Shown: positions 831-64,000 of the stretch, piece after piece | How the letters are laid out: the number at the start of each line of letters is the position of its first letter | Numbering within the stretch: the stretch's first letter is position 1 | Source: Psammoneis japonica | Taxonomy: Eukaryota | Reading direction: 5' to 3' | DNA: 64,000 nt | Assembly: GCA_008632985.1 (NCBI GenBank) | Contig: QPGO01000209.1 | Location: 1-64,000 of the forward strand | Program-made: the position numbers and the translations under genes | Notes under the pieces: model-generated | Database searches by the model: none | Seen by the model: only the letters and a program-made list of their open reading frames with translations | What the model was told of the DNA's origin: nothing

Positions 831-888
831 CTACTCTCTCTCTACTCTAGTAGTAGTAGCTACTAGCTCTACTCTAGCTACTAGCTAG
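831..888. repeat. Low-complexity CTA/TAG microsatellite-like tract
   Basis: CTACTCTCTCTCTACTCTAGTAGTAGTAGCTACTAGC... Confidence 0.8.
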
Positions 889-3754: not shown

Positions 3755-5685
3755 GGGTGTTGAGAAAGCACAGGCAGGTGTGCGTCGCAGGGCCCTGCGT
3801 GGAGAAGGGCAGCGCCCTACACAACATGGTCATGATGATCTGCACAGCTCAGAAAACAGACAAAATGCAGGAACAACCCATGATGACGGCGGTGGGTGTG
3901 CCGGCAGGCGAGGCACCCCGAAGCTCATTGGACGTCAACACAAGCAGCAAAACTCAACACATGTGTGCAGTGATGTGCTTCTGCATTTTGCTTTCAAGGG
4001 ATGCAGAGCAATGTGGCACCGCAGAGCACTGAATCACCTTTTGAACTACAGTGCAGCACTTCTCACCATGCAAGCAATGGATCGCGGGTGGAACGCAAAG
4101 ACGGCAGCCGACCGGCGGCCATCACACTGGGCACTTGCATTGTCTCGTTCGTTTTTTTTCTCTTGTTTTCTTTTTTATGAGAAGCCCTCGGCGCTTTTCG
4201 GAAGCCTGACCCGAGAACAACAATTCTGGGCAAGAGCATCCCTTGTTTAATTTTGCGAAGCTTTTGTGTGTTTGTTGCGAGTCTTTTTCGTGCACAAAAC
4301 GCGTGCAACAACACAACAATCTGCAATCGTTAAATGACACTTCTGCACATTCCAGATTGATTTCTTCCTGCAAGAAACAATCGGAAACTGTCAGCCACGA
4401 CTCTCAGCAAAGAAAACGGCAATCACAGGTGTCCCAATGGGTCATTCGCGAACAATCAAAATCGGAAACTGTCAGCCACGGCACCCAGCAGAGAAAGGGC
4501 AATTGCGCACTGAGTGTGCGTGCTGACAAGTCATTCGCGAACAGTCACACAGCATCGTGGGATTGCAGGTCCAGCATGCTGTGTCATTCGTGAATGATCG
4601 AAGTCGGAAACTGTCAGTCACGGCACCTAGTGGAGAACGGGCAATGACTGAGTGTGCTGATGAGTCATTCGCGAACAGTCACACAGCGTCGTGGGATTGC
4701 TTGAGCAACGAGGGAACTTGAATTTTCATTGGTTTAGATTGTTGAGGGGACAGGAAAGGACAAAAAGAACATTGCATGTCTCCAAACTCTTGGATTGTGT
4801 TCGTGATGACAAACAGGGTCAAGTGCACCAGCGCAACAATGCTGTGCTTCCATTGTCAAGATGTGCTTTTGCAGATCTTCTGGCAGCTGTTGTGACAGTT
4901 CTGCACAAACCATGTTTGACCCCAACAAGCTGCAAAAAACAGTGTGCCTTTCATCATGGCCCGTTCCCCCATTTTCTGCTGAGTCTCACATCGCCAGCCA
5001 CAAGAGACTCTGCACACAGCACGTCTCGGTGCAGAAAACTCCAAAGGCTTTGGAGCAAGTCAGCACATGCCAAGCTCTGCTTTTTTTGACTTGAGACAGT
5101 TTCTTCCTGCTGCACTGGGTGGGTTTTCTCTCCTTCTTTGTTGTTTCCAGCCAGCCCCAAGCAAGCCTCTCGGCATGACTCTCTCAGCTGCTCGAGCTGC
5201 ACAAGGGGGGGAGAGTGTTTGCAGCAGCTCACCCACCTCCTCTCATTTGACACAAAGCACTGCTTGCACAGAATTTGCCAAATGCAGCTTTGTTTCTCAC
5301 ACTTTGCCATCAACTCTGTCTGAAAAACCTGTTGGCTTCTCAACAACTCTGCCAGGCATGAAAGCCTGGTGATGGCGGAGTCTCCTCAGTTGAAGTCAAC
5401 AGTGCTTCAGAGCATTTTTGGGCATGTGCTCTCAAACATGAGAGTGCAGCAAATTTGGCTCACAGCAAAAGTGTCACAAACAAACAAACAATCAAACAAT
5501 GTGCTTTCCAAGATCTGAGCCCTCCTGTGGGGAGCTTTTGAAGAAGAAAAAAAGGGCTTGCTCTGCCAAGGGCTCAGGCATCTTTTTCTTCCTCCTTTTG
5601 TGCTTTGTTGCACCTCACCCTCAAACTTGAGCTTGGAGCATTGGACCAGGTTTTGGATTTGTGGTCTCCTCCTGCAAATTCATTG
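3755..5685. mobile_element. Unclassified decayed repeat, TpA-depleted; host of the Copia insertion, continuing at 12793
   Basis: TpA is lost abruptly after about 3752. The segment contains internal repeats and is interrupted by the Copia with TSD. Confidence 0.45.
4381..4700 (+). repeat. Three imperfect tandem units (starts 4381, 4462, 4604)
   Basis: Each unit begins TCGGAAACTGTCAG and contains GTCATTCGCGAACA. Confidence 0.85.
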
Positions 5686-5961
5686 TGACAGGATTTGAAC
5701 AGGATTCAGGTGCGCGCGAAATGTCACGCGCTGTTTAGTTTGCCGCGCACAGTTTTGTGTGCTTTAGTTCCGCGCGTTCGCGCGCGATGTAGTTTGCTTT
5801 CGAGCCACAAGGCTCACAAGAATAACAACAGTGGCCCGATTGTACCGACTTACACGTCTTTCGGCTCCTGTGACGGTCTCTGAGCGGAGACTCATCTGCC
5901 ATTTAGACAGCAGTGAGGAGTCATTGTTTGAATTCTTGCCATTTGCCTTCAATTTCTGTCA
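5686..5961 (+). repeat. 5' LTR of Copia element
   Basis: TG...CA ends; aligns without gaps to 12512-12787. Confidence 0.95.
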
Positions 5962-6895
5962 GATTGACAGTCTTGCTCATTGTCAACCCATTGAGCAACC
6001 GCCATCGTCGTCGTTGATTTACCGACGACTTTCAATTCTGCGTGGACCTCCGTGTGTGTTCTACGTACATCGGCAAGTCTGCGCGCATTCAATGCCAGGC
6101 ATCGGCAGGAAGTTAACATCACCGTCAAGTCTCCTTGCCGCTGAATGTCTGGATTGATTGCGCTGCCTTTAATCGCTGAAGACATGCATTCAGCGGTTGC
6201 ATCCAAGTCCATCCTTGATCCTCATCCCTTGATGTGCCCATTCAACGGTTGACGGTCAAGAACCCCACACATTCAAGGATCTTCGTCACTGAAGACATGT
6301 GCACATCTGTGTCTTCACGGCCAAGAACTTGTGCCCACTCTTTGGACTGCGGCTTTGCTGCCACTCTACAAGCACACCGAGTCCATTGCACCTGATCTAC
6401 CCTGGACTGCTGGTGCTCTGCAGTTCTGCTGGGTCCACGAGGATGACTGTGAGAGCAAGCAGCCGTGATTGCAGCCTGCATTTGGGCGAGGGTGAATTTC
6501 CCACGTTTGTTCGTTCGTCCACAGCGCCTGACGCCTGCGTCAACTGGCCAGCCTGATCGGGAAATCCAACCGATGTAAAATGAGAACGGTTCGGGGGTCT
6601 TGTCCACCTCCAGTCAGCTTGCCTGCAGGGGTTTACAACCCGCTGCTCCGCTCGCAAGCAACCCAAAGCGCCGCTGGCTGCGGGTTCGGACGTGCCGGCA
6701 CAACTCTACGGACCGGATGGGAAGTTTAGCACTTGACAACGAACGGGATAACACAACCCGGCGACTTCTGATTTTAAGACAGTTCAAGATTTCAAGTCAA
6801 GTCCACTTCAAGTCAAGACTGTTCCCACTCAAGTTTCAAGTCCACCTCCGCGTCCCAACAAGAATCACTTGTCCTGACACCGCTTTTTGTCTGCC

Positions 6896-9800
6896 ATGGT
6901 TCTCACTCGTCAGCAACAAACCGATGGTTTCGAGCACGTTGTTGGAACCGCACTTGCCCAAGGTGCTGGAAGCCCTCTTCGTTTGGCTTTGACCCATGAC
7001 GACACGGACTCGCACCAAGAACTGTTCACGTTCATGCCTTCCCAAATCGACTCGCTTGAGTGCGACAACGGCGCTGATGTGATCCCATTGCCCCGAGGTC
7101 AAAGAACATGTTGGCAGCTCTAGTCAGTCTGCACATTGTCAAAGCACACGAAGGCCTTGATGTTGCCAATGACTCCTCGTTGTTCATGCATGAGGAGTTC
7201 CTTGCCTGCCGCCTCAGTCCCGACTGCATGTCTTCTGTGTCCGTCGGCAGCTCACCTCTCGCACCTCCGCATGTCACCAACCCGACCAAGGCACGCGACC
7301 CGGTGCGAGACTTCAAGCGAGGCATCAAGCGTGACCCCACTGCTTTCACGGCTCTCAAATCCGACAAGCAGTGGCACACTTGGCACACCTCACTTGTGGC
7401 ACAAGCCCGTGCCCAAGACGTCGAGTGCATTCTAGACTCGTCGTACAAACCGACCAGCCCCGAAGACAAACTGCTCTTTGCTGAACAGCAAAAGTGCATG
7501 TTCGCCATCTTCGAACGCATCCTTCTCACCGACAAGGGCAAGGCTCTCATTCGTGAAAATGCAGGGTCTTCTGACACCCAGACCGTCTGCCGCGCCTTGT
7601 CCGAGTGCGCGCTTGCCTCCACCCACGCATCTGTCGAGTCCTCCACCTTGCTCACGCACCTCACCACCGCACGCCTTGGTGATGGTGCTTGGAAAGGTCC
7701 GACCCACGGGTTCATCCTTCATTGGCAGGATCAGTTGCGCAAGTGCAAGGCACTCATCCCGGCCAGTGACCACTTCTCTGAAGGACAAAAGCACGTCATG
7801 CTCGAAAATGCCACACATCCTGTCGAGGAACTCCGCGCCGTCAAGAACCAAGCTGATCAGCATTGCACGCAGAGTGGCAAGAGCCTCACATGCGATCAAT
7901 GTTGTGGCTTGCTCCTCTCCGCGGCAGCTCAATGCGACAGCACGTTTCAACCCAAGACGACACCTCAAGCTCCCCGACGCGCCACACACGCACACGACAT
8001 CTGCTCCGAGGAACCATCCGATGATGTGTTCCATGACATCGACAGTGACATTGACGTCCTTCAGGCCAACGCTGCCTGCACCCGCGGCCCCAGCCTCACG
8101 GTGACCAATGGAAACGTCTCCCTCCCGACCACCAACGGATTTGGGATTCGTTGCCCCATTCCTCCAAGGCGATCATCCTTGAGCATTCTCGTCCGCCTCC
8201 CCGCAACCCGCGAGCCAGCAACCACCATGAGTCTGTTGCGGTCAACCTTCACGACCAACGACTTGGGAGTGACGGTGATGTCAACTTGTCCAACACGACT
8301 CCTGCTGACTCTGGTGACCCCGCTCCAAATGTGGGTGCCACTTCAGATGATCCCATCCTGGCGCACCTCACCAAGTGCAAGCCACTGCCACCCGGTGATC
8401 TGCAACCTGTTGTCTCCTAACCAAGCCCCCAACGCCAGTCGACCGGGCCCATCCGCTGCTCCCTCTACCTCGCCTGCTCCTGCAGATGACATGGAACTTA
8501 ACGGCCGCACTTGCCGCCGCGTCAATGACCACAATGTCATTTGCTCTGCCTCCGCTCATCGCTCCACACGCACTGGTGCTCTGGTCGATCGTGGAGCCAA
8601 CGGCGGCATTGCTGGCGACGACGTTCGCATCATTGCACGCACCTCTCGCCAAGTCAACGTTCAGGGCATTGACGACCATCAATTGGTGGACATCCCCATT
8701 GTCACCGCTGGTGCCATCATTGAGACACAGCGTGGTCCCGTCATCGCCATCCTCCATCAGCGCGCATGCACGGGAAAGGGCAAGACCATTCATTCCTGCG
8801 GCCAGCTCGAATGGTGCAAACATGATGTCAACGATCGCTCTGTCAAGGTGCCCAACGGCTTGCAACGTGTCGCCACCCCTGATGGCCATGTCATCCCTGT
8901 TGACATCAAGGGCGGCCTGCCTCATGTTGCCATGCGACCCCACACTGACGCCGAATGGGACACCCTGCCCCATGTCATCCTCACCGGTGATGACACATGG
9001 GATCCTTCCGTCCTCGATCACTCTGTCTCTGACGACGACCAGTGGTGCGACGCGATCTCTGACCTGCAGGATGATCCCACTGCCAACCTGTTTGACGAAT
9101 GCGGCAACTGCCGTCACCGTGTCGTTGTCCACAAGGCCATCATGTCCGCCTCCTTGTCTGCCGATCACGCGTCCGCCCTCGATGACCACCTCATTCTGAA
9201 TGACGACGTGTTCTGCGAGTGTCATCTGCACGCGATTGACCCCAAGGACGACGATGTTCCGCCCCTGGAGCGCACTGTGCAGCCCAAGGACCCCCCCCCC
9301 ACGAGTCTCTTTGGCCTTGCTTTGGTTTCCAACCTGCCGATGCGGTTCATCGTACTTTCGACTGCACCACGCAGTGCGCCCGCATGCCCGCCGGTGCACA
9401 CCTTGAGAAGGCCCACAAATCGCCCAACCCCGCCCTTAATGTGCACCGCCGCAATGAGCCTGTCGCCACTGACACCGTTCATGCCGACACCCCAGCCGTC
9501 GACTCTGGTTGCACCAGCGCCCAACTGTTTGTTGGCACCGAGTCTGCCGTCACTGACATCTACGGCACCAAAACGGACAAAGAGTTTGTCAACACACTCG
9601 AGGATCAGATCCGTGAGCGTGGTGCTCCATCCAAACTCATTGGCGACCATGCTCAAGTTGAGATCAGCAACAAGGTGCTCGGATCCTACGAGCCCTCTTT
9701 GTCTCCAGCTGGCAAAGTGAGCCTCACCAGCAACACCAAAACTTTGCCGAACGTCAACACCAGACCGTGAAGCACATGGCGAACACTGTGATGGACTGTT

Positions 9801-12564
9801 TTGGTTCGCCTGCCCACACATGGCTGCTGGCGCTCATGTGCATGTGCTTCATCCTCAACCATGCAGCATCCCCACATCTCCACTGGTGCACGCCCCTCGA
9901 GACTCTCACTGGCTCCACCCCGGACATCAGCCCATTGCTTTGCTTTCACTGGTGGGAACCCGTGTGCTTCCACCTCGATGACTCCGATTGGCCGTCCGAA
10001 TCCCGTGAGTTGTGTGGACGCTTTGTTGGCATTGCTGAGCATGTCGGCCACCAGATGACCTTCAAGATTCTCTCTGACGAGACTCAGAAGATCCTCTGCC
10101 GGTCCAACGTACGATCCGCCACCACCGATCCTGCCGTTCGAAACCTGCGTCTTGATCCTCCTGATGGGGAGCCACCTGAACCCATCATCAAATCTCGCCA
10201 TGACGACAACCCCGTCGATTCACCCGATGGGGAGATCAGGACACCCAAGATGCCAGTTTTCGATCCGCAAGACATCATCAGATGCACCTTCCTCATGCAG
10301 CCACAAGAGGACGGACAACGCCACAGAGCTCGCATCGTCAAGGCCGTCGAAGACCACGAATGGAAAGTGAACGGCAACCCCGAGCTCACCAAGTTCGTCT
10401 GCTCTGTCAACAACGACGAACACGAGGAAGTCCTGGCCTGCAACGACATCATGAATCACATTGAGCAAGAAGACGAAGACACTGCTGTTTGGAAATTTCA
10501 ATGCATTGTGTCACACGAAGGACCTCTGAAGCCTCATGACCCAACCTGGAAAGGCTCAAGCTACAACATCATGCTTGAATGGGAAAGTGGGGAGATCACG
10601 TCCGAGCCTCTTGCCATCATCGCCAAGGATGACCCTGTCACCTGCGCCATCTGTGCACGAGAGAACAGACTTCTCGACACTGATGGCTGGAAGCGGTTCC
10701 GCACCATCGCGAGGCGCCAGAAGAAGTCACTCCGCATGGCCAACCAAGCCAAGCTTCGCTCCTTCCACACTGCACCTCGCTGCAAGTGCGGACACGAAGT
10801 TCCCCGGAACTGCAAACACGCCATGTCACTGGACGAACGCAACGGCAACCGCAAATGGGGAGACGCGACTAATCTCGAGATGGACCAACTCGATGAATAC
10901 AAAGTCTTTCATGACTGCAGGCCCTCCGAGTCTTCCACTCCTCCTGCGGGACACAAGAAGATCCGAGTGCACCCAGTGTACGACGTGAAACACGACGGTC
11001 GCCACAAGGCACGACTCGCAGCCAATGGGCACCTCACGGACGCACCCATCGACAGTGTATGCTCCGGAGCAGTCTCCCTCCGTGGCCTTCGGCTGATGAT
11101 TTTCCTGGCCAAACTCAATGAGTTGGAGACATGGGCCACCAACATTGGCAATGCCCACCTTGAAGCCACCACCAAGGAGAAGCTGTACATTGCAGCTGGA
11201 CCCAAATTTGGCAAACTCGAAGGCCACATTCTTGTCATCCACAAGGCCCTGTGTGGACTGCGCAGCTCCGGCCTTCGCTGGCACGAGCGCTTCGCCGACT
11301 GCCTGCGAGCTGAAGGTTTCTTCCCCTGCCGCGCCGAACCCGACATTTGGATGCGCAGGAACGGCGACCACTGCGAACATGTTGCCGTTTGTGTGGATGA
11401 CCTCGCCATTGCCATGAAGGACCCTCAATCTTTCGTCGACACTCTCACGGAAAAGTGCAAGTTCAAGCTCAAGGGTGCGGGACCGATTGAGTTCCATCTG
11501 GGCTGCGACTTTTCCCGGGATCCTGATGGCACCTTGTGCCTGTCTCCGCGCAAGTGCATCGAACGCATGGTCGACAGCTGCACACGACTGTTTGGGGAGA
11601 AACCCCACCACCAACGCCCTGTCACCTCTGGAGAAGGGTGACCACCCCGAACTGGACACTTCCGAACTGCTGGGGCCCGATGGCATTCAACAGCTCCAGT
11701 CTCTTGTTGGTTCACTCCAATGGGCAGTGTCCCTTGGTCAAATTGACATTGCCACGGCCGTCATGTCACTCTCTAGCTTCCAAGCTGTGCCCCGTCAAGG
11801 CCACTTGGATCGTGCCAAACGCGTCTGTGGGTGCCTCTCCAAGATGCGACACGGCGCTCTCCAACGTTTGCACGGAAGAGCCCGACTGTTCGGATCTCCC
11901 TGCTCCGGCCCATGAGTGGATGCATTCCGTGTGCGGCGAAGCAGAAGAGATGATCCCGAAGGACGCTCCACCGCCCCTTGGCAAGTTTGTCACCACCACC
12001 CACTGCGTTGATGCAAACTTGTGCCATTGCATGCTCACCAGATGCCCTGTCATGGGAATGCTCCACTTCCTCAATAAATTCCCGGCTGATTGGTTCTCTA
12101 AGAAGCAAGCCACCGTGGAGACTGCAACCTGCGGGTCTGAATTTGTTGCCGCAAGGACTTGTGTCGAGCAGATCATCGACCTGCGCATCACCCTGCACTG
12201 CCTCGGTGTCCAGATCCGTGACATCAGTCACATGTTCGGTGACAACAAGTCGGTTGTAGACAGTGCCACCATCCCGCACTCCAAGTTACACAAGCAACAC
12301 ACCGCACTGTCGTTCCACCGTGTGTGTGAGGCAATTGCCTCTGGTTGCCTTGAGCTCCACTTCATTGAAGGCTCCCGCAACCCTGCTGACATTCTCAGCA
12401 AGCATTGGGGTCACTCCCAAGTCTGGGACCTTCTCCGCCCCCTCATGCTCTGGAACTTCATTCCATCCGAAGTCGAATCTGTTTCTGTGACTCCTCAAGC
12501 AAACTGGGGAGTGACAGGATTTGAACAGGATTTGGGTGCGCGCGAAATGTCACGCGCTGTTTAG
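6896..12564 (+). pseudogene. Copia gag-pol polyprotein, frameshifted near 7110, 9300, 9690, 11610 and 11865
   Basis: gag FKRGIKRD; protease LVDRGANGG; integrase NEPVATDTVHADTPAVD; RT VYDVKHDGRHKARL, KALCGLRSSG and HVAVCVDD; RH VETATCGSEF, FGDNKSV and NPADILSKHW. Confidence 0.93.
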
Positions 12565-12787
12565 TTCACCGCGCACAGTTTTGTGTGCTTCAGTTCCATG
12601 CATTCGCGCGCGATGCAGTTTGCTTTCGAGCCACAAGGCTCACAAGAACAATGACAGCAGCCCGATTGTGCCAACTCACACGTCTTTTGGCTCCTGCAAC
12701 GGTCTCTGAGCAGAGACTCATCTGCTGTTTAGACAGCAGCAAGGAGTCATTGTTTGAATTCTTGCCATTTGCCTTCAATTTCTGTCA
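12512..12787 (+). repeat. 3' LTR of Copia element
   Basis: Matches the 5' LTR and is followed by the TSD CATTG. Confidence 0.95.
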
Positions 12788-12792
12788 CATTG

Positions 12793-15700: not shown

Positions 15701-16250
15701 CGTGCACGGAATGGAAGCTGCAAATGGTCACCTCTGTGACTCACAAAAACATCCCAGACAACACGCAGCCAGCCACAGCTGTGCCAACCCTGCAGTGCTG
15801 GCTTGACAGTTTGCTTTCCAGCTGCTCTGCTGTGGGTGCCAGTCTGAGCAAAGATGTGGTGTGGAAGTTGTTAAAAAGTGCTTTTTTCAAATCAGATCCA
15901 CTCCACAGCTTTCCCTCAATGCTGCGCTGAGAAAAGACCCTTTGCAAAGTTCTGGATGGCATGCGACTCATCCTCTCCCAATTGTCCTGTCCCAAGTCCT
16001 TCTTTCCTCATGCCTCCACAGACTCATTTCAACACTGGGTAACTCGCCCAGCAGATGACAACCCAAAATCTGTGCTCTCAAGAGCAGGACAACCTTTCCC
16101 ACTGCTTTTTGCATCAGCAAGTGTGCTTGTTGAGCTTTCATTCATGTTCATGAGCTTGGGAACACAACGTGTGGCTGTGAGATCAAACCAAACCCCAGCT
16201 GACCTACATGCAAAGTCATGTTGCCTTTTCTGCACTCTGCAACCTCTCAT
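12793..16250. mobile_element. Unclassified old repeat block, depleted of both TpA and CpG
   Basis: Composition. Internal duplicated motif CTGCAGATCCTTGAGC near 13606 and 13840. Homology to 34598-34685. Confidence 0.4.
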
Positions 16251-48260: not shown

Positions 48261-48419
48261 CCGCCACTCTTGGAGGGCCGAGAAGGAAAAAGGGGATGGG
48301 TCAGAAGCAAAACAAAACCAAACATCCACATTTTAAGTGCTGCTGCGCTTCCACCCTGCAACTCCGGCAACAAGCTAACCCACACCCCCAGTGCACTGTC
48401 AGTGCGGCAGGAGCAAATG

Positions 48420-54314: not shown

Positions 54315-54541
54315 GGTTGGGCCGTGCTCCTCCGAAGAGAAGACTGAGGCTTAGAGCACTGCATTAACTTGAGGTTCGGTTGAAAGGAGAAAGGCCGACA
54401 TCTAGAGGTCCGACGAAAAATGGAAATTAAAGTGAGAGGTGAGTGGAGCCGAGCAACAATGTCGGGAGGACGCCTAATTTCTTGAGGGGGTGGAGGCGGT
54501 GAGATCCAACCCCTGCCCAAAAATCCGATTCCCTGTCTTTG

Positions 54542-56221: not shown

Positions 56222-56403
56222 GGTGGCGTTGTGGATGGGAGGAGGGGTGTGGCTGCCGTCAACGATGGAAGGAGACGCGATGGTGATCGGCTGTTCTGCG
56301 GGGAGCCTGGCACTGAAAACACGTAGGCACTTTCAACACCAGCAATCACAGAATTGTGGATGGGTTAGAAGCAGAGCTGAGGGTGGGTGAAGGCGTGGAC
56401 GCG

Positions 56404-57600
56404 TCAGTTGGCGGGTGCGTCGGCTTGATTGATGATGTTTTGCACAATGGGAGGGACATCGGACCCTGGAAGCAGCATGAAATTTCCACAGTTCAGGATT
56501 TTCGTAGACAGTCCTGCTGTCAATTGTGACGCTTGGGCGTGAAGACATCGAAACACAGCATCGGATTTCCAGCGGCCGACGAGACGGATGATGTCGGTGT
56601 CTGCTTTTGTGCACAGCAGGGCCATGGCGCCACCGGCGCGGAGGCTGCGGGCTGTGACATCTTTCGGCAGGAATCCCACATGTGGCAAGGCGGCAGCTGA
56701 CACTTGGAGCATTTTGGTGATGGCACGGCTCGTGACATGACCCCACCGCAAACCAAGGCGCACAGCACACAGGGGGGTGTTAGCGTTGGCGCCGTTGGAA
56801 CGCAGGTGATGCACACGGCGGGCAATGGCGAGGACCGGGCATGCCTTGGAGTGAGAGCTTCTAGCATGACCAACCGTTTCGCCGCATTCTCGATTCTTCT
56901 GAGCATCAAACGCAATGCTGCTGTGTGTCGCGAGGAACAGCTGTTGCAGGGGGCAGGTCAAGTGGTCTAGTGCGCGTTGTCCGACGAGCAGTTTGATGTC
57001 TTTTAAAACCAAAGGGTCATTGTCTTTGCTCTTGCAATGCTCCCCCGGTCGCAGAAGGCAGAAAAGGCCGATCCAGGACATGTCGATGACAGCGTTGTCG
57101 AGGGCGGATGATTCATCGACAAGGGCTTGTGCGTGGTGCACGATTTGGATCGGAAGAGGCTTGACGCGGTTCGGCAGCAGATCGTCTTTGGAGCACAAAG
57201 GCGAGCAAGGCGGGGATCCATAATGCCGTGTGGCGTTAGCCGCGGGTCCGGGGCCCCCAGTTCGGTGAACGTCTTCGCGACGTGAAGGACTTCGTCACGA
57301 ACGTGCGGAGCTGAGATTGGGTTGCCGCTGCGGCTGAGGCGTCCATCCCTGAGGCGACAGGCAAAGACTCGGAGTGTCAGGATTTTGTCTTGGACACCGG
57401 TGAGGAGAGGGTCTTCGACTCCAATGTCGGACAGGAAAGGCAACCAACACTTTGCCCAGACGGTGTCCGTGGCACGGGCGCGCTCGCTGGTGACAGCTTC
57501 GTGGGCTTTTGCCGTCGCAAGGCGGAGATCAGTGAAGAAATGATGTCTGGCGGCGGGTGTGGCATTCGCCAAGGTTTCGTCTGCGGGGCAAGGCGAGCAA
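56404..57600 (-). pseudogene. Tyrosine recombinase of the YR retrotransposon; frameshift near 57195; catalytic Tyr replaced by Cys
   Basis: GLFCLLRPGEH, RSLRAGGAMAL and GRWKSDAVFRCLH (expected RW.S....RY). Confidence 0.9.
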
Positions 57601-57634
57601 GCGCAGCAAGAAGGTGAGACGGCGTGGAAAATTT

Positions 57635-59554
57635 TCAGGAGCACGTGTCTGCGAGGAGATTGGCTGGGCCAGGAATGTAATGGAAGCGGGAGACGTGTCG
57701 GAGCTGCCGTTGTTGCAGGCTCCCCATCCGCAGCATGTCGGCGCCGGGGCCGTCGGTTGTGACAGAGCCTTTTCCGCGCCGGGAAATGGCAGGCGTGTTG
57801 TCGCAGCACGTGTGGACGGTGCGTTCCCTGATGTCGACGGCGATGCCGACGACGGCCTCTTGCAGAATTGTGCCGGCGAGCTCGAGGTCGGAGTTTGTTA
57901 TAGTTCCTGTGGGGTTGTCGTCCGAAACAACAGCGGCTTGCAGGTCTAGAGGCAGCGGCACTTGCCAGGCGGTAGGAGGGAAGTCGTCGTGAGGGCCAGG
58001 CAATGGGACGCCACCAAACCCAGGTTTTGCTGCGTCGCACGCCCCGTAGAAGTGCCCGTCGGCAGCAGGGAAAAGTTCAGCCAGCCGAGTAGGACGCGAG
58101 ACAATGTCCACGGCCAAGGTGTGCAAATCTTGGAGCTGGCGGCGCGCATGGCGGTTGATGCGAGTGCGGGAGTCACCAGAGGTGGCAAGAGAGTGCTGGA
58201 GGTTGGAGAGAACGCCCACACCACCGGATGCTGCCAACAACATGCTGCGGACTTCGCCGAGAAGTTTGTGGCATTGTTTGTTGGATGTGCGGCGGCGAGG
58301 GATGGTGTCAGCCAGAATGTCGAGGAGGCGTTGTCGACGATGCGGCGGCAACTCGACAGTCCCGGCTAGTGTGTCTATGAGCCACCCCAAAATGACCTTC
58401 ACTGTCGACCACGACGCGTCTCCTTTGAGAAGTTTCTTTAGGGAGATGGTTTCACGCCGCCAGTGCTCGTCAGACGGTGTGTTGGGACGGAAGACTTGAT
58501 CGTTGATGTGTAAGAGGCGTCGACGCAGCTTGTTGAGACGAGCCTTCGTTCCTTGTGCGGCGCATGTTTCATCATCAACGTAGACATCGAAGTGTTCTAG
58601 TGGCTGAGAGCCCCGTTGGGGTCTGCGACAGAGAGCGGCGGGAGGAGGAAGGCGTGACATGCGGCCAGTCGGAGCCGCACTGGAAGGCGGTGGCACGTCG
58701 ATGCGCAAGGTGTTGTCGTGAGGCGCTGGAGTGGCCGCGGCCTGTTCCAGGGGATGAACCGGAGGGTCCCAAGTTGTGGGCGAGCAGCCACTCGCCAAGT
58801 CAATCACCGTCTCGGTGCCCACACAAAAGAATGGCGGACTCTCGGTCCAGCCCATGGGTAGGACGAGAGGCAGCGCTGTCAGCGGTTCCTCCCCTGGGCC
58901 TGCTGGGAAGGCCACCCCGAGCTTGGGTGTGTCCTGGGGTCGCAGCCCAACGCGATAGAACCCATCGGAAAGGTCAAGTTTGAGCATGTGTGCCGGGCCG
59001 TGCTTCGGGTCTGCACGGAAGATGTTGTACAAGAACCTGTCGAGAGCTCGACCGAATTGCATGGCTTCTGGAGGGGTGTGCTTCACAGTCTCGTCGTTGA
59101 GACCGCAATGGCTGCAATCAATGATGGTGCGCGGGCGGCGGTCGCGTTGCGGCACCACGCCCATCGGTGAGACACGTAGGTGGGGGAGCTTGCAGGCTTC
59201 GCGGCACGGCAGGACTGTCCAGTGTTGTTTCTGGATCATGTCCGCCACATCCGATTCGAGGAAGCCCAGATGCTCGTGCGTGGACGGATGGCTCCCGCGG
59301 TCGGTTGCCATCCGGACCCGGTGAGGGGACCAGTCTTCCGTTGAAAACTGGACCGGTGCTCCGTCGTTGCGGAGTTTAGAAAGTAACTCGGCAGCTGGGT
59401 GGGGCAGCTGCCGAACATTCTCGGCCAGACACGGCTCCCTGCGCAGGTGTGCAACGAACTGGCTCCAGCCTAAAGTTTGTAAGAGTTCAACATGGTCCTC
59501 TGCTGACTTGCCTAGTTCGTTGCTGCGTGGATGCTGCTGGTGCGGATCTGGCAA
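57635..59554 (-). CDS. Reverse transcriptase/RNase H of the YR retrotransposon
   Basis: KLDLSDGFYRV, LPMGWTESP, VYVDD and ILGWLID; RH CDAAKPGFGG, NSDLELAG, CDNTPA and IPGPANLLAD. Confidence 0.9.
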   Translation of the reverse strand: MPDPHQQHPRSNELGKSAEDHVELLQTLGWSQFVAHLRREPCLAENVRQLPHPAAELLSKLRNDGAPVQFSTEDWSPHRVRMATDRGSHPSTHEHLGFLESDVADMIQKQHWTVLPCREACKLPHLRVSPMGVVPQRDRRPRTIIDCSHCGLNDETVKHTPPEAMQFGRALDRFLYNIFRADPKHGPAHMLKLDLSDGFYRVGLRPQDTPKLGVAFPAGPGEEPLTALPLVLPMGWTESPPFFCVGTETVIDLASGCSPTTWDPPVHPLEQAAATPAPHDNTLRIDVPPPSSAAPTGRMSRLPPPAALCRRPQRGSQPLEHFDVYVDDETCAAQGTKARLNKLRRRLLHINDQVFRPNTPSDEHWRRETISLKKLLKGDASWSTVKVILGWLIDTLAGTVELPPHRRQRLLDILADTIPRRRTSNKQCHKLLGEVRSMLLAASGGVGVLSNLQHSLATSGDSRTRINRHARRQLQDLHTLAVDIVSRPTRLAELFPAADGHFYGACDAAKPGFGGVPLPGPHDDFPPTAWQVPLPLDLQAAVVSDDNPTGTITNSDLELAGTILQEAVVGIAVDIRERTVHTCCDNTPAISRRGKGSVTTDGPGADMLRMGSLQQRQLRHVSRFHYIPGPANLLADTCS

Positions 59555-59605
59555 GCAGGCAGAGGAGGGCTGCAGGCCAGCTCTAGGGCTGACTGGCCCC
59601 CGTCC

Positions 59606-61702
59606 TCAGGTGGAGGCCGCCGGTGCCGGCGCGGGTGCCGGAGCTGGGGCGCCACCTTCTTGGGGATTGGACACGTGGTCCCGGATGAACGCGCTCACAG
59701 CCGTCCTTTCGCATGGCGAGAGGTTCCGGTGCGTGTTGCTGCGCTCACAGTTGGCGAAGCACGTTCCTTTTAGGTGATGGGAAAGGCACACTTCACATGC
59801 GGTGCCACTTGAATCCGTGGTTCGGGGTGCGAAACGTCGGACCGTAGCCAAGCGGATCCCGGCTTGTGCAAAGGCCGTCAGCCAGGACCGCACCGGGTTG
59901 GGATTCGTGACGGCCGCGCCCGGGTCGCGACGTCCCGCAGTGGCGGCAGCCGCGGAAGGAGTGCCGCTGTTGCTGGCGCTGGTCGAGCTCGCCTGGGAAT
60001 TGGTTGTCTGCTCTGGTTGGCCAAGCAAATGGCGTGGCAACTGTGCCAGCAAGGAGAATTGTCCGTGGAGCACCTTGTGCGCCACAGCAGTGTAGTCGGG
60101 CACCCGGGGCACACCACCTTGCGTGAGCCTGCGCAGGTAGACTCCCATGAGCATCTGCACCTCGCGACAGATGCGGGGAAGTGCGTTCCCCTCAGCCAGG
60201 AGTGCTCCCGATTGTTCGAGCAGGTCGACCATGTCTCGCCAATCTTCCAAGCAGAACTGCCGGAACGCCACAGCATGGGGGTGATTCGATCCTTGGATGA
60301 CGTCCAACACCAGACTGGCAGCTTGAAGCATGCTTCCGCAATGGCAAGTGGACGTGGGAAGAGGTGTGTCCTTGGTGTGGAACTCCTCCTGTTCCGCAAC
60401 GGCAGGCATCAAGTTTCCGGCCAACGTGAGGTCGCAGCGTTCGGCCCGGACTTGCACAGTGGAGCCTTGTCCAGCCAAAAAGAAGCCACACATGAATGGG
60501 GAGACGCCGGCGGTCAGATCGTTCACTTGGTGCACGTGAGGTGCCACCTTCCCTTGCAACACCATCTCGCACAACTCCTTGGAGACTGTGGGCGCTGTGC
60601 GGGATGCCGCGTCAGGCTCTTGGGCGCGAGCTTCCAAGGCGCAAGCAAAACACAGGCGCCGCTCGGCTTTGGTGCTGTTGGCCCAGGCGTGGTACAGCGC
60701 GGGCAAAGCCGCATCGTCCGGTGTGCTCGAAAGCAAGAGCCACACGGGCGCAGTCTGCGGGAAGGCTTCCGTCGGAGTTTTGGGGGCGGCGGCCGCGGCC
60801 GCCGCTGCGGAACGTGTTGCTTCCGCGCGTGCTGCATCGGCGCGAACTGTGTTGGCGAAAGCCAGCACCCGGTCGGTGTTGTCCACAGCCGTTGTGTCCA
60901 GGGCGGGAAGGTCCTGTAACAACGTACGCCAGCGATGCTCCTGCAGGTGGGCGTCCACCGCGAGTGGTGGCAAGGCGGTGTCACGATCACCCATGCACTG
61001 AACCGGATCTGGATTCGCCGCTGTGTCGGCAGTGAGTGCCGCGCGCAACCAATCGATGAGGGGACTCAAGTCCCCCGCGCGTCCGTCGTTTTGGATTGCT
61101 CCTGCGAGTTCCCGCCAGGCCTGTGGAGGAGTGAGATCCCGGCTCAGCACGAGATGCAGATGGGCATGGGGCACCTGCATGAGTCGGCGGACGTAGATCG
61201 TGTCGGTGTCCGGGGCGCCATCGGTCTGCGGAGGTCCCAAATCCTCTTCATCAACCAGAGTGCCTTCTAGGGCGGCCATGTTGGCCACCGCAGGTGCCAC
61301 TTGTGGACCCACGGTTTCAAACGGGGTGTTGGGCAACTCGAGGATGGCAATGAAGTTACCCAGTAGCACGTCTCCTTGAAAACAGAACACACGACCGTCC
61401 CACGGCGAGGTCTCCACCGGGTCTCTTATGCAAACCGAGGGCCGGTGGATGCAGGTGATCTGGCACCCCGTGCCTTGGCGCACTGGCACCAAAAAGGCCT
61501 TGGGTGCCACGTCGCTCGAGTCGATGGTGTGCTCGAGTAGCGCAGCGGCCGGCTCGGGAGCAGCGACGGTGGTGTCGCATCGACGGAATGAATTCACGTG
61601 CTCCCCTCCCAAGTGATCGCCTTGGGTCATCCACTTGTCGTGGTGTGTTTTTGGGGGTGCCGGTGGCGCTCCACCGGCAGCTGCAGGAGGGACAGCAGCC
61701 AT
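59606..61702 (-). CDS. gag-like ORF1 of the YR retrotransposon with C-terminal CCCH zinc finger
   Basis: Starts MAAVPP just after repeat A1; contains CLSHHLKGTCFANCERSNTH near the end. Confidence 0.75.
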   Translation of the reverse strand: MAAVPPAAAGGAPPAPPKTHHDKWMTQGDHLGGEHVNSFRRCDTTVAAPEPAAALLEHTIDSSDVAPKAFLVPVRQGTGCQITCIHRPSVCIRDPVETSPWDGRVFCFQGDVLLGNFIAILELPNTPFETVGPQVAPAVANMAALEGTLVDEEDLGPPQTDGAPDTDTIYVRRLMQVPHAHLHLVLSRDLTPPQAWRELAGAIQNDGRAGDLSPLIDWLRAALTADTAANPDPVQCMGDRDTALPPLAVDAHLQEHRWRTLLQDLPALDTTAVDNTDRVLAFANTVRADAARAEATRSAAAAAAAAPKTPTEAFPQTAPVWLLLSSTPDDAALPALYHAWANSTKAERRLCFACALEARAQEPDAASRTAPTVSKELCEMVLQGKVAPHVHQVNDLTAGVSPFMCGFFLAGQGSTVQVRAERCDLTLAGNLMPAVAEQEEFHTKDTPLPTSTCHCGSMLQAASLVLDVIQGSNHPHAVAFRQFCLEDWRDMVDLLEQSGALLAEGNALPRICREVQMLMGVYLRRLTQGGVPRVPDYTAVAHKVLHGQFSLLAQLPRHLLGQPEQTTNSQASSTSASNSGTPSAAAATAGRRDPGAAVTNPNPVRSWLTAFAQAGIRLATVRRFAPRTTDSSGTACEVCLSHHLKGTCFANCERSNTHRNLSPCERTAVSAFIRDHVSNPQEGGAPAPAPAPAPAAST

Positions 61703-62665
61703 CAAGAGACAAGGTTGGCGTGTGTCGCTCCCTTTGTCAAAAAGTTTACAACTGCTGCTACGGCCTCGGTGGGCGGTGACAAGTTGCAAAGAATGCCATT
61801 GGCATTCCGGTCGTTCAAGGCTGCGTGCGTTGGGGGGTGGATGCGTCTGTCCTTCCCCCTGCGCTGCTGAAATAGACACTTCTTCAATCTCAAACCACCC
61901 GGTTGCTGGGTCGATCATTGTGACTGCCCACAATTGCAAAGTGTCCTTTCCGCGTCTTTGAATTTTGTGTGGCCCTGTCACATCCATGCACAGAGTCTCC
62001 CATGGAATTATCTCGGCGACCTTTTCTGGCAGCTTCTCATGACGCTGCGTTCGGCGTTTTGTCTTCTGGCATCGATCGCACTTGACGCACGTAGAATGCA
62101 CCGTAGACCTCATGCCAGGCCAGCAGAAGTGCTGGGCAACAGATGTTTCCGTGCGTGTCTCACCTGGGTGACACAGTGTCTCGTGGCACCATTCAGCTAG
62201 CGGAACCTGCAATGACTGTGGCACTGCGATTTTGTCCTTATGACAGATTAACTGTCGTGATGACCCTCCCCCACGATGCGCGCGAATGGAGCAGTCGGAC
62301 AAGTCCTCAGCTCGTGAGAGCAGGCGCTTGTCCTTTTGTTGTTCTTTTTGAATGCGCTTGAAGCCAACAGGCAGAGATGCGTCGTCTTGCGTGTCCGCGT
62401 TAAAAGCTTCATGCAAAGGACGACTCGATGGAGTGTCTTTTGCATCCGGATTGGCCTCGGAAGGCAAGCTGGGTGCCAGCCGAAGGCGACTAAGAGCGTC
62501 AGCGACCAGGTTGTGGGTGCCCTCAACATGGCGTAATTCGGGACCGCATTCTTCGCATGTCAACCGCCAGCGCATAACGCGCTCAGTGTTGAATGCTTTG
62601 TGCGCAAGATTTTTATGATCAGCATGTACAATCACACGATGACCGAGGAGAGTCGTTCGAAATTC

Positions 62666-63061
62666 GACGTGTTCCAGCTCTGGGTGGGACCTCGCACTGC
62701 TGAACTGTGACACAATTGTTTTTTGTCATCCGTCGTATGTTTCGCACGCACATTTCTACGTGTTCTGTTATAAAAAATTGTTCCACACTGCCTGTTTTGC
62801 GAAGCCAAAGGCTTTCTGTTGTCTGCACTTGTGTCAACAAAAATGCGCTGGGTGTGTTCTTTAATGTCTAAAGAGCACACCCGGGCACACTGCAAAGAAT
62901 GTACTTCAAGTGTGGAGGAGGAGACACGTTCGCAAAATTGCCTCTTTTTCTGTTGGCGATCATTCACATGTCCATTGCTTGGTGATTTTACTGTGGAGCT
63001 CGCACGCAGAATTCTGCGGGCCCAATGTCACAAAAAGTCCCACCTGGGACTGGAACCCGTC
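62666..63061. mobile_element. 396-bp MITE, copy 1
   Basis: TIRs GACGTGTTCCAGCTCTGGGTGGGAC and GACGGGTTCCAGTCCCAGGTGGGAC; TSD ATTC; removing it restores TLKEFRT. Confidence 0.92.
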
Positions 63062-63102
63062 ATTCTTTCAATGTCTCCACAATGGCGAGCAATTCTCTCT
63101 CC

Positions 63103-63498
63103 GACGTGTTCCAGCTCTGGGTGGGACCTCGCACTGCTGAACTGTGACACAATTGTTTTTTTTCATCCGTCGCATGTTTTGCGCGCACATTTCTGACTGT
63201 TCCATCATGAAAAATTGTTCCACACTGCCTGTTTTGCGAAGCCAAAGGCTTTCTGTCATCTGCACTTGTGTCAACAAAAATGCGCTGGGCATGTTCTTTA
63301 ATGTCTGAAGAATGTGCCCGGGCACACTGCAAAGAATGTGCTTCAAGTGTGGAGGAGGAGATGCGTTCGCAAAATTGCCTCTTTTTCTGTTGGCGATCAT
63401 TCACACATCCATTGCTTGACAATTTTACTGCGGAGCTCGCACGCAGAAATCTGCGGGCCTGATGTCACAAAAAGTCCCACCCAGGACTGGAACCCGTC
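63103..63498. mobile_element. 396-bp MITE, copy 2
   Basis: Same TIRs; TSD CTCC; removing it restores ATTEREL. Confidence 0.92.
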
Positions 63499-63688
63499 CT
63501 CCGTTGTTGCACAATTTAATTGCGCACTGTTGAGCTTTCTGCCACAAAAGGCGACAGGTTTGTTGTCTTGGGATGTGACTGCTCCCAATTGACATTTAGA
63601 GGCATCGGTGTGCACCTCAAAGGATTCATTAAAATCAGGATGTGATGATAAAACATCATCTGACATTGCCCGTTTAACGGTTTTGAAT

Positions 63689-63792
63689 GCCTCGTCTTCA
63701 ACGGACGTCCACTCCCACTTGACAGTCTCGCTTGCGAGTCGCCTCGTCTTCAACGGACGTCCACTCCCACTTGACAGTCTCGCTTGCGAGTC
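63689..63792 (+). repeat. Perfect 52-bp tandem duplication within Gypsy pol
   Basis: GCCTCGTCTTCAACGGACGTCCACTCCCACTTGACAGTCTCGCTTGCGAGTC occurs twice. Confidence 0.92.
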
Positions 63793-64000
63793 GTGTCAGC
63801 GGAGCCAAGACTTCAGAACGTCCAATCCACGGGTCACGGCAGCAGTTGACCATGCCAACAAATGACCGCAGGTCGCGTTCATTGGTTGGGGTCGCGATTT
63901 GCTTAATGGCGTCAACTTTATCAGGCATTGGTCGTGTTCCGTCTCTGTTGACCAGGCAACCCAAGCACTCCAATTGGGTTTGACAGAAGTGAGATTTGGC

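Follow-up and report, generated by a model that had tools for sequence, protein, structure and literature searches.

What removes almost every TpA dinucleotide from long tracts of a genome while leaving the genes between them unaffected? The question is raised by a 64,000-nucleotide stretch of Psammoneis japonica contig QPGO01000209.1 (hereafter, the window). To our knowledge, RIP and the APOBEC-type defences all change C to T. A first-pass annotation, which knew of no description of the opposite change, proposed a transposon-restricted "reverse RIP" that converts TpA to TpG or CpA. A natural A:T to G:C mutator of foreign DNA has, however, one report so far, a 2026 preprint on one alga, Bigelowiella natans, and this preprint describes TpA-only A to G and T to C hypermutation of integrated viruses (Mettrop et al., 10.64898/2026.01.13.699255).

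Extent and borders of the TpA depletion

In the three stretches described by the first-pass annotation as nearly devoid of TpA, we counted 143 TpA vs. 1647 expected from base composition (3755-30000, o/e 0.087), 8 vs. 186 (34386-37300, o/e 0.043) and 213 vs. 1123 (42900-64000, o/e 0.19), compared with o/e of 0.67, 0.64 and 0.51 in the three gene islands; the depletion is confirmed. Block by block, seven have a TpA o/e of 0.03-0.13 and five others one of 0.20-0.31, against 0.50-0.66 for the islands, and the o/e of TG and CA rises up to 1.6-2.0 where TpA is depleted. The features of the window are as follows (strand in brackets where one applies; o/e values for TA and CpG):

1-3750: gene island, spared; TA about 0.66, CpG 0.88
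3751-5684: TpA-depleted block, no match to transposable elements (TEs) by tblastn; TA 0.057, CpG 0.52
5681-5685 (+): left CATTG target-site duplication copy of Copia-1
5686-12787 (+): Copia-1, full-length LTR retrotransposon; TA 0.13, CpG 0.85, GC 56%
5686-5961 (+): 5' LTR of Copia-1, the less mutated LTR; 7 TA and 21 CG retained
9767-11641 (+): RT ORF of Copia-1, with CVDD at 11390
12512-12787 (+): 3' LTR of Copia-1; 2 TA and 15 CG retained
12788-12792 (+): right CATTG target-site duplication copy of Copia-1
12793-16282: TpA- and CpG-depleted block, no TE match; TA 0.066, CpG 0.11
16283-19505 (-): Copia-2 fragment (RVT_2 in 17166-17903); TA 0.095, CpG 0.38
19506-26265: depleted block, no TE match, HVVLSR motif at 24462; TA 0.085, CpG 0.30
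26266-29890 (+): Gypsy-like element (RT_RNaseH in 28166-28684); TA 0.053
29891-34352: gene island, spared; TA about 0.62-0.64, CpG 0.92
34353-37123: depleted block between gene islands, no TE match; 5 TA in 2771 bp, TA 0.028, CpG 0.18
37124-42866: gene island with two ELWxxDGT/TSP3-repeat genes, spared; TA about 0.50, CpG 0.92
42867-46400: depleted block, no TE match; 6 TA in 3534 bp, TA 0.029, CpG 0.43
46401-49173 (-): Gypsy-like fragment and a stretch without TE match (48001-49173), partly depleted; TA 0.31 and 0.23, CpG 0.91 and 0.79
49174-56215 (-): LINE, partly depleted; TA 0.20, CpG 0.83
53322-54314, 50586-52046 and 54542-56221 (-): LINE ORFs, namely, endonuclease, RT and ORF1-like
56216-62749 (-): Gypsy-like element 2 (Integrase_H2C2 in ORF 59606-62713), partly depleted; TA 0.23, CpG 0.95, GC 60%
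62665-63061 and 63102-63498: direct repeat pair, 91% identical

The edges of the depletion are sharp (<300 bp), as indicated by the TA pairs that flank the block borders (3750 and 3818, 34352 and 34481, 42866 and 43160). All recognisable TEs of the window are depleted and three of three gene islands are spared, but the six depleted blocks marked above as lacking a TE match have no recognisable TE or viral homology, so that restriction to transposons is borne out only in part. For block 3751-5684 this homology was judged by tblastn, and Pfam searches covered ORFs of the other blocks. Block 34353-37123 is now single copy by contig depth, a state that could itself stem from mutation; the Gypsy-like element 26266-29890 is multi-copy by summed contig depth. 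The relatives of the window's TEs are from diatoms. As to the labels "Helitron-like" and "YR element" given earlier, the HVVLSR motif does occur at 24462, yet the family assignment finds no backing in Pfam or PDB; a further HVVLSR, at 37679, matches by chance.

Depletion of CpG occurs in part of the same DNA. CpG o/e is 0.11-0.43 in six depleted blocks, and TG together with CA make up 95% of YpR steps in 12793-16282, whereas CpG is intact (o/e 0.79-0.95) in Copia-1 and most of 46-64 kb. Copia-1 has lost TA and kept CpG (o/e 0.13 vs. 0.85), and in several metagenome Copia loci CpG is lost (o/e 0.10-0.24) and TA is normal; CpG decay and TpA loss overlap but are separable. The decay of CpG to TpG or CpA in silenced, methylated transposons resembles what is seen in six blocks of the window, in their coinciding edges and in 6 of the 19 differences between the Copia-1 LTRs. 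However, deamination of 5-methylcytosine is incapable of removing TpA and accounts for the CpG part only.

Direction, strands and timing of the change

To determine the direction of the change, the window was compared with dinucleotides shared by 60% or more of 71 related elements. Only 3 of 22 conserved TA sites (14%) are kept in the window, and 18 of the 19 changed sites became TG or CA (15 TG, 3 CA, and 1 TT), while each of the remaining 15 dinucleotides survives at 61-100% of its sites; the lower retention of AC and AT is that of the A of TAC and TAT. Conserved AA reads AG at only 3 of 46 sites, compared with 18 of 22 for TA to TG/CA. The RT ORF of Copia-1 contains 7 TA vs. a mean of about 90 in its homologues. 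On the + strand of the most depleted blocks TG and CA are nearly equally frequent (1870/1876 and 341/332), in line with the proposed A to G change on either strand, and in the same blocks TG or CA outcomes show no clustering into runs (absolute z below 2). That both strands have been altered is also seen in three repeat pairs, which hold 7, 10 and 23 double differences, i.e., sites with TG in one copy and CA in the other.

The proteins of the elements reflect this change in their tyrosine content. The Copia motifs reported earlier are in place (CVDD at 11390, KALCG at 11243, GNAHL at 11147), and the ORF at 7108 has 1 Tyr in its 870 aa, ORF 54542-56221 having 2 in 559 aa. Tyr makes up 0-0.8% of residues in 14 of 15 ORFs of depleted blocks (1.9% in the LINE RT ORF) and 2.0-3.2% in four island ORFs. 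Conserved Tyr columns are kept in 3 of 22 cases in the Copia RT (14 Cys, 3 His, 1 Phe and 1 Trp instead; 19/21 to 32/32 kept in five homologues used as controls) and in 2 of 19 cases in the Gypsy-like ORF (10 His and 5 Cys; 295/393 in pooled controls). The LINE RT keeps 4 of 17, its 13 changes including 5 Cys, 4 Phe and 2 Asp, and its six controls keep 6/15 to 16/16. The replacement of Tyr by Cys or His claimed across TE classes is clear in Copia and Gypsy-like proteins and noisier in the LINE, which is the least clean of the three comparisons.

The timing can be read from Copia-1, which has an intact 5-bp target-site duplication, CATTG, on both sides. Its LTRs (282 aligned nt) differ by 26 mismatched nt that represent 19 events, 18 of them at YpR steps (7 TG-versus-CA doubles, 5 differences of TA from TG or CA, and 6 of CG from TG or CA); the remaining event is 1 transversion, and there are no other transitions. 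At all 11 polymorphic TA or CG sites the 3' LTR has the mutated form. In 5000 simulation runs of 26 random transitions, the mean number of TG-versus-CA doubles was 0.6 (maximum 5, vs. 7 observed), and that of non-YpR events was 12.5 (minimum 4, vs. 1 observed). Since the LTRs of one target-site-duplicated element differ almost only at YpR steps, at least part of the TA to TG/CA change dates after insertion; Copia-1 has lost about 90% of its TA, yet its LTRs show 1 non-YpR difference in 282 nt. The repeat pair 62665-63061/63102-63498 holds 10 TG-versus-CA doubles, 8 single YpR events and 4 other events, and the first copy has TA at all 5 sites where TA faces TG or CA. The tandem pair 27451-28169/28169-28886 inside the Gypsy-like element 26266-29890 holds 23 doubles. 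Within a pair, the polymorphic TA sites are all unmutated in the same copy, at a ratio of 5:0 both in the LTR pair and in the 62.7-kb pair, which suggests uneven exposure of repeat copies but is no proof of episodes. The LTR pair, the strand counts and the conserved-site test together support the post-insertion, double-strand, TpA-specific A:T to G:C mutator postulated in the first-pass annotation.

The loss depends on sequence context. Among surviving TAs, RTAY is the most erased and YTAR the least, with relative survival of 0.08 for ATAT and ATAC, 1.8-2.2 for CTAG, which is among the better-surviving contexts, 2.7 for CTAA and 4.6 for TTAA, and the partly depleted 46-64 kb shows the same pattern. 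The trinucleotides ATA/TAT are at 0.01 of their reference level, and the order of preference for the 3' neighbour is T>C>G>A. ADAR prefers G at the 3' side. A plain ADAT-type enzyme does not readily fit, because the order observed differs both from this preference of ADAR and from the anticodon contexts of ADAT2/3. The ratio of TG to CA outcomes at Tyr codons varies by element (15:3 in Copia, 5:10 in the Gypsy-like element). A 3'-neighbour model derived from surviving TAs predicted Copia outcomes with 10 right, 2 wrong and 7 ties, and had no predictive success in the Gypsy-like element and LINE (8 right, 7 wrong, 7 ties).

The proposed process and its alternatives

The window demonstrates the direction of the change, its specificity for one dinucleotide, the involvement of both strands, its timing after insertion, its confinement to non-genic blocks and its dependence on context. 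In our opinion, the host genome quite probably hypermutates mobile or otherwise foreign DNA in place, from TpA to TpG or CpA. In such a process the A of TpA would be replaced by G on either strand (equivalently, T by C), in DNA and after insertion, so that TA gives either TG or CA, at many sites seemingly by chance. Mutation would run far above background, so that a young element would shed about 90% of its TAs before ordinary substitutions build up. Susceptibility would be set by the neighbours, being highest for RTAY and lowest for YTAR, and the process would halt at the borders of inserted DNA, sparing genes. The removal of Tyr codons and of TAA/TAG stops would wreck the proteins and leave long open frames. 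The change of CpG to TpG/CpA, as expected for methylated DNA, would be slower and separable, and would converge on TG/CA with the TpA process. The latter is presumably enzymatic, is likely to be targeted via silent or methylated chromatin, and may serve as a defence. Its chemistry is perhaps adenine deamination, to which we give somewhat less than even chances, the alternatives being thymine oxidation or biased repair.

These alternatives would leave the in-place phenomenon as it is and change its chemistry only. A T to C change at RTA is formally identical to A to G at TAY, and the 3' preference observed is unlike the preferences known for deaminases, both of which speak for thymine oxidation at TpA of the TET/JBP type (5hmU or 5fU), where the oxidised T would mispair with G to give T to C, or for error-prone or biased repair in silent chromatin. 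In dinoflagellates 5hmU favours TpA and TpC, and 5-formyluracil gives A:T to G:C changes. However, 5-hydroxymethyluracil combined with diatoms led, in the literature records retrieved, to dinoflagellate reports only, and GC-biased gene conversion has no TpA specificity. The Pol eta-like WA to WG synthesis named among the candidates in the first-pass annotation fits poorly, as it would deplete ApA, and AA to AG is barely seen (3/46, vs. 18/22 for TA to TG/CA). We regard another chemistry as rather unlikely.

Very unlikely, in turn, is editing during the retrotransposition cycle, in which element RNA would be edited from A to I, or cDNA deaminated, and the result made permanent by reverse transcription and integration, as in the ADAR and APOBEC3 footprints of animal retroelements. 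Most recognisable elements of the window are retroelements, U at position -1 is preferred by ADAR and by fungal A-to-I editing, and the element-specific bias to Cys or His could reflect strand-specific steps. ADAR, ADAT (TadA-fold) and APOBEC3 also share with the window the reading of A, once deaminated to I, as G, the U/T at -1 and the logic of hypermutation as defence, but they act on RNA or single-stranded cDNA and mark one strand, whereas both strands of integrated DNA are altered here, about equally, and the ADAR/ADAT contexts differ from the 3' order T>C>G>A. One-strand editing before integration was rejected on these grounds and because the LTRs, which start out identical on integration, have diverged by 18 YpR events despite the intact target-site duplication. 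Furthermore, in-place tandem and direct repeats hold 23 and 10 independent TG-versus-CA doubles, and blocks without retroelement homology are equally depleted. In B. natans the targets are integrated DNA viruses, which mutate in place (10.64898/2026.01.13.699255).

A sequencing or assembly artefact, in which a modified T or A at TpA of silent DNA is misread and the true genome has TA, is hardly credible. In the B. natans lines such mutations were called from Illumina data (10.64898/2026.01.13.699255). The effect is limited to DNA that is probably silent, the kind in which base modifications are concentrated, and of the two-platform read support envisaged earlier a single run covers the region, X1, a public run of about 30x word depth with no platform recorded, whose reads are possibly those of the assembly itself. 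Contigs of this run nevertheless reproduce the TA-free 34319-37446, 43076-44708 and 44810-46000 with 0 differences and at the depth of gene islands. LTRs and repeat pairs read TG in one copy and CA in the other at one site, a pattern that systematic miscalling would not yield, and four proteins of other public assemblies share the Tyr to Cys/His signature. Finally, native composition or selection, i.e., families that avoid TpA/UpA or came from a TA-poor donor, can practically be set aside: mild UpA avoidance is widespread, many RNA viruses avoid TpA/UpA and the gene islands themselves have TA o/e of about 0.5-0.67, but the 79 related metagenome Copia loci have TA o/e of 0.33-1.0, with a minimum of 0.25 among their 745 one-kb windows and none of the depletion seen here, so that the family is not natively TpA-poor, conserved catalytic Tyr is destroyed (e.g., YVDD to CVDD), the LTRs of one insertion differ at TA sites, and unrelated element classes are in one common state.

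Relation to known systems and significance

Fungal RIP changes C to T, mostly at CpA, creates TpA, lowers GC, and requires duplication and a sexual phase. It resembles the change in the window in producing context-specific transitions in mobile DNA, on both strands, with sharp edges, destroyed proteins and spared genes. In the window, unlike in RIP, TpA is destroyed, CpA/TpG are gained and GC is raised (56% in Copia-1); the designation "reverse RIP", like "transposon-restricted", is borne out only in part, given the six blocks without TE homology. Very-short-patch repair of E. coli leads to CTAG loss, its T:G to C:G bias turning a TA word into TG/CA, but here CTAG is one of the contexts that survive better (1.8-2.2).

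The closest counterpart is B. natans, where, of 231 new mutations found in two integrated viral regions, 230 are A to G or T to C, and all GC-biased mutations fall on TpA according to the authors, at a rate estimated by the authors as about 1000x that of the genome (10.64898/2026.01.13.699255). The target is single copy, and reverse transcriptase and DDE endonuclease domains are over-represented among low-TpA coding sequences; the preprint puts forward an A-deaminase hypothesis and cites ADAT2 of amphioxus and trypanosomes as able to act on DNA (10.64898/2026.01.13.699255). As in the window, only TpA is affected, with TpG or CpA resulting according to strand, and long-term TpA depletion is accompanied by a gain of CpA and TpG. 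In B. natans only foreign DNA is affected and mutation elsewhere in the genome is normal, while in the window islands are spared and six blocks lack TE homology; the B. natans process looks non-constitutive, and in the window one LTR or repeat copy is mutated far more than its twin. B. natans belongs to another supergroup branch, being a rhizarian, and the relatives of the window's TEs are from diatoms. Depletion in its two integrated viruses is mild (Rho TpA 0.45, and none in the virophage region), whereas every recognisable TE class of the window is altered, near saturation (o/e 0.03-0.13). The overlap with CpG decay and the RTAY-over-YTAR rule are particular to the window, as judged against the available text of the preprint. 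The mutation rate was measured directly in B. natans, and the window is known from sequence alone. TpA erasure in the window looks like a second, much more saturated case.

A second case, apparently in a diatom, would mean that the process is not a one-species curiosity, and that it can erase nearly every TA, hence every Tyr codon and most TAA/TAG stops, across all mobile-element classes. A joint reading, which we consider improbable, is that of an old common defence of SAR algae, rhizarian and diatoms alike, in which one machinery at silent chromatin would drive TpA and (methyl)CpG to TG/CA. Within it, A-deamination at TpA and C-deamination at (methyl)CpG might possibly be due to a single dual-specificity DNA deaminase of the TadA/ADAT2 fold with RTAY preference, which would make it a naturally occurring adenine editor of double-stranded DNA. 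Were the enzyme a DNA adenine deaminase, it would also be of interest for base editing. The enzyme would be constrained by action on integrated DNA and on both strands, by RTAY over YTAR, and by co-location with CpG decay, and the search for its gene could set the deaminase, TET/JBP and polymerase repertoires of diatoms that carry the signature against those of diatoms that lack it. In genomes of this kind the annotation of TEs, the dating of LTRs and the prediction of genes would be misled, through long spurious ORFs, undetectable domains and inflated LTR divergence.

The signature of TpA erasure is uncommon, as it is carried by 0 of 120 public LINE homologues, as judged by Tyr, and by 0 of the 79 metagenome Copia loci. 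Among 120 public Copia homologues, 116 have Cys or His at no more than 14% of conserved Tyr columns; the share is 37-70% in the remaining four, P0171, P0233, P0235 and P0169, which come from JGI and ENA.

TpA depletion along the window and identity of the depleted blocks

The first-pass annotation had described TpA as nearly absent from large parts of the window and normal in its gene islands, and block counts confirm both the depletion and the sparing of the islands. TA was found 143 times in 3755-30000, where 1647 occurrences are expected from base composition (observed/expected ratio, o/e, 0.087), 8 times vs. 186 expected in 34386-37300 (o/e 0.043), and 213 times vs. 1123 expected in 42900-64000 (o/e 0.19), while o/e in the three gene islands is 0.67, 0.64, and 0.51. 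A 1-kb dinucleotide scan gave TpA o/e of 0.00-0.12 across most of 4-30 kb, 0.05 and 0.00 at 35-37 kb, 0.00-0.03 at 43-46 kb, 0.10-0.35 at 46-64 kb, and 0.35-0.84 in the stretches between the depleted regions. The block edges are abrupt, with the last TA before the edge and the next one beyond it at 3750 and 3818, 34352 and 34481, and 42866 and 43160. Directly adjoining the second of these TA-free blocks is a stretch of about 120 bp (34228-34346) of normal TA content that has the look of a dispersed short repeat spared by the hypermutation. Its summed contig depth reaches about 5000 vs. 30 for unique DNA, and another run shows it with different flanks.

Pfam searches and tblastn with fetched homologues assigned the following depleted blocks to transposable elements (TEs):

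5686-12787 (+), full-length Copia retrotransposon (Copia-1), with LTRs of 276 bp and flanked by a CATTG target-site duplication
16283-19505 (-), Copia fragment
26266-29890 (+), Gypsy-like element
49174-56215 (-), LINE
about 56216-62749 (-), second Gypsy-like element

Among named sequences, the TE proteins are closest to those of two diatoms, Fistulifera solaris and Fragilaria crotonensis, and on the strength of these TE relatives the window is likely to be diatom DNA. Six depleted blocks (3751-5684, 12793-16282, 19506-26265, 34353-37123, 42867-46400, and 48001-49173) gave no tblastn match to the fetched TE proteins, and Pfam, applied to ORFs of the second, third, and fourth of these, returned no family at E<=0.05. 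Two of the unassigned blocks were examined for terminal repeats and have none, no tRNA genes were found in the course of this identification, and two ORFs from these blocks had no match in a PDB sequence search, so that the first-pass labels 'Helitron-like' and 'YR element' are putative.

TG and CA o/e values rise up to 1.6-2.0 in depleted DNA, and in the most decayed blocks TG and CA make up 95% of all YpR steps (TA, CG, TG, and CA). CpG is nearly lost in part of the region (o/e 0.11 in 12793-16282 and 0.18 in 34353-37123). Copia-1, the LINE, and the second Gypsy-like element retain theirs (o/e 0.85, 0.83, and 0.95).

Among island genes, the ORF 30593-31186 (+), counted to the first gene island, encodes a DUF6824 domain (E 4e-7) and could be of use in placing the organism. 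Two ELWxxDGT-repeat genes, 37618-39816 (+) and 40402-42513 (-), are diverged inverted paralogues of about 65% nucleotide identity that both also encode a thrombospondin type 3 repeat and are not TpA-depleted. Their products have bacterial or unnamed metagenome proteins as best database relatives (29-43% identity) and thus give no taxonomic signal for the host; the pair is a gene family that this eukaryote may have gained by horizontal transfer. At 37679, the motif HVVLSR occurs by chance and in a different frame.

Direction and timing of the change

The Copia motifs from which the first-pass annotation had read a loss of tyrosine are in place (CVDD at 11390, KALCG at 11243, and GNAHL at 11147), and the loss recurs across conserved Tyr columns of three elements, of which the LINE is the weakest replicate.

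Fate of conserved tyrosines (element; conserved Tyr columns; kept; replaced by; controls)
Copia RT, vs. 60 homologues; 22; 3; 14 Cys, 3 His, 1 Phe, 1 Trp; five homologues keep 19/21 to 32/32
Gypsy-like ORF; 19; 2; 10 His, 5 Cys, 1 Trp, 1 Leu; pooled, 295/393 kept
LINE RT; 17; 4; 5 Cys, 4 Phe, 2 Asp, and others; six homologues keep 6/15 to 16/16

For a nucleotide comparison, codons of 71 of 79 related metagenome Copia loci were threaded onto the protein alignment, the other eight being left out for a longest tblastn segment of <430 aa. At 22 sites where TA is conserved in >=60% of loci, the Copia RT of the window keeps TA at 3 and has TG at 15, CA at 3, and TT at 1. The remaining 15 dinucleotides are kept at 61-100% of conserved sites, the lower retention of AC and AT reflecting the A of TAC and TAT codons. 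The whole RT ORF has 7 TA vs. a homologue mean of about 90. This direction is opposite to that of RIP, which is thereby ruled out. ApA is spared (AA->AG at 3/46 conserved sites), which eliminates the Pol eta-like (WA->WG) signature proposed as a candidate by the first-pass annotation.

TpA poverty could also be the native composition of the Copia family. This is ruled out by the TA content of the 79 loci, of which none is hypermutated: their TA o/e is 0.33-1.0, and the lowest of 745 one-kb windows taken from them is at 0.25, with just 4 below 0.3. Locus L065 is merely mildly low (TA o/e 0.33, Tyr 2.9%). Six loci (L069, L062, L078, L002, L003, and L006) have CpG o/e of 0.10-0.24 yet ordinary TpA (0.49-0.70), so the CpG and TpA decays are separable. 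CpG decay without TpA hypermutation seems to be the commoner state among these relatives. CpG decay is ruled out as the sole cause of the pattern in the window.

Contigs of the public read run X1, at a word depth of about 30x that equals that of the gene islands, show 0 differences to 34319-37446, 43076-44708, and 44810-46000 and thus reproduce three TA-free stretches exactly, although X1, whose platform is not on record, may be the assembly's own data; runs X2 and X3 from the same sample are nearly devoid of the region. Of 69 between-copy differences 40 were listed, and 15 of the 23 examined, which lie in or beside depleted blocks (the other 17 are rows of island-2 gene paralogues, left out), are YpR interconversions, including one TG-versus-CA double. 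At two of these sites the window keeps TA, in the contexts TTAA and GTTAA. The signature also appears in public proteins: in four of 120 Copia homologues (P0171, P0233, P0235, and P0169), 37-70% of conserved Tyr columns read Cys or His, vs. at most 14% in the other 116; it was found in 0 of 120 public LINE homologues.

LTR retrotransposition inserts an element with two identical LTRs, and for Copia-1 the intact target-site duplication speaks against later rearrangement. Its LTRs differ at 26 of 282 aligned positions, which form 19 events: 7 TG-versus-CA doubles, 5 TA-versus-TG/CA, 6 CG-versus-TG/CA, 1 transversion, and no other transitions. A double results when one ancestral TA is converted independently on opposite strands. 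When 26 random transitions were simulated 5000 times, the mean number of doubles was 0.6 (maximum 5) and that of non-YpR events 12.5 (minimum 4). The direct repeat pair at 62665-63498 differs by 10 doubles, 8 single YpR changes, and 4 other events, and the older tandem pair at 27451-28886 has 23 doubles and 13 CG-type events atop 67 ordinary substitutions. The 5' LTR of Copia-1 has the unmutated state at 11/11 polymorphic TA or CG sites, as does the first copy of the 62.7-kb pair at 5/5 polymorphic TA sites, which suggests unequal exposure of neighbouring copies. About 90% of the TAs of Copia-1 are gone, yet its LTRs show a single non-YpR difference, from which we infer a per-site TpA rate at least two orders of magnitude above background.

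Strands, neighbour context and known systems

In the most depleted blocks the plus strand carries TG and CA in nearly equal numbers (1870/1876 and 341/332), which rules out a simple strand bias, and a runs test on TG/CA order gave no clustering indicative of strand tracks or processivity (|z|<2 in 8/8 regions). Editing during the retrotransposition cycle is ruled out because both strands are affected and the LTRs differ. The surviving TAs are a non-random sample of contexts.

Relative survival of TA, scaled to NTAN frequencies in the 79 native loci (context; strong blocks; partly depleted 46-64 kb)
ATAT; 0.08; 0.0
ATAC; 0.08; 0.09
ATAG; 0.11; 0.54
GTAC; 0.59; 0.48
CTAG; 2.2; 1.8
CTAA; 2.7; 2.6
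TTAA; 4.6; 2.4

Susceptibility is highest for RTAY and lowest for YTAR, and ATA/TAT trinucleotides fall to 0.01 of the reference level, TAA/TTA only to 0.06-0.18. An additive per-strand model fits this ranking: the A in 5'-T-A-N-3' is converted most readily if N is T, followed by C, G, and A. Applied to the choice between TG and CA, this 3'-neighbour model is right at 10 conserved Tyr codons of Copia and wrong at 2, with 7 ties, and has no predictive value in the Gypsy-like element and LINE (8 right, 7 wrong, 7 ties). The Cys:His ratio of lost tyrosines is 15:3 (nucleotide level) in Copia-1 (9767-11641) and 5:10 in the Gypsy-like element (59606-62713), a contrast for which neither strand orientation nor the neighbour model accounts.

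The core of the first-pass reading, a post-insertion TA->TG/CA change on both strands, is supported by the conserved TA sites, the LTR doubles, and the strand balance, and we consider it likely that the pattern arose because mobile or foreign DNA was hypermutated in place from TpA to TpG/CpA. The same annotation knew of no description of such a process, which has been superseded: our literature search found none in diatoms and elsewhere only a preprint on Bigelowiella natans, and two diatom TE papers and two others, looked up by term, do not mention the signature. According to that preprint (bioRxiv 10.64898/2026.01.13.699255, Mettrop et al.), in mutation-accumulation lines two integrated viral regions mutate about 1000x faster than the rest of the genome, with 230/231 new mutations being A->G or T->C, all of these on TpA according to the authors; the hypermutation is limited to some lines, the larger region is single-copy and silent, low-TpA coding sequences are enriched in reverse transcriptase and DDE endonuclease domains, and an ADAT2-like deaminase is the authors' hypothetical agent. 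The window shows the sequence-level features of the B. natans process but differs in host lineage, in that all recognisable TE classes are affected, in near-saturation, in the neighbour rule, and in that CpG decay overlaps the TpA loss. We regard the window as probably the first case of this very recently described process in a diatom, and by far the most extreme. Adenine deamination is a possible chemistry, which we put forward tentatively; that one machinery underlies both TpA and CpG changes, or that the process shares descent with that of B. natans, appears unlikely.

Consequences for reading frames

TAA is present 2.5 times and TAG 1.5 times per kb of the first depleted block, vs. 10.2 and 7.1 times in the islands, and TGA is up. 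This accounts for the many long ORFs on both strands and for Pfam matches that are weak or absent. Antisense ORFs of 286-351 aa lie within hypermutated elements at 8368-9399 (-), 10826-11686 (-), and 59864-60919 (+); they are probably by-products of stop-codon loss, and such ORFs are a trap for gene prediction. At 59606-62713 (-), an integrase (residues about 17-284) and a region of roughly 690 aa share a single ORF of 1035 aa; the relatives of the 690-aa region are about 700 aa long, stand alone, and were assigned to no family here. This fusion may have arisen by the loss of a TAA or TAG stop through TA->TG/CA.
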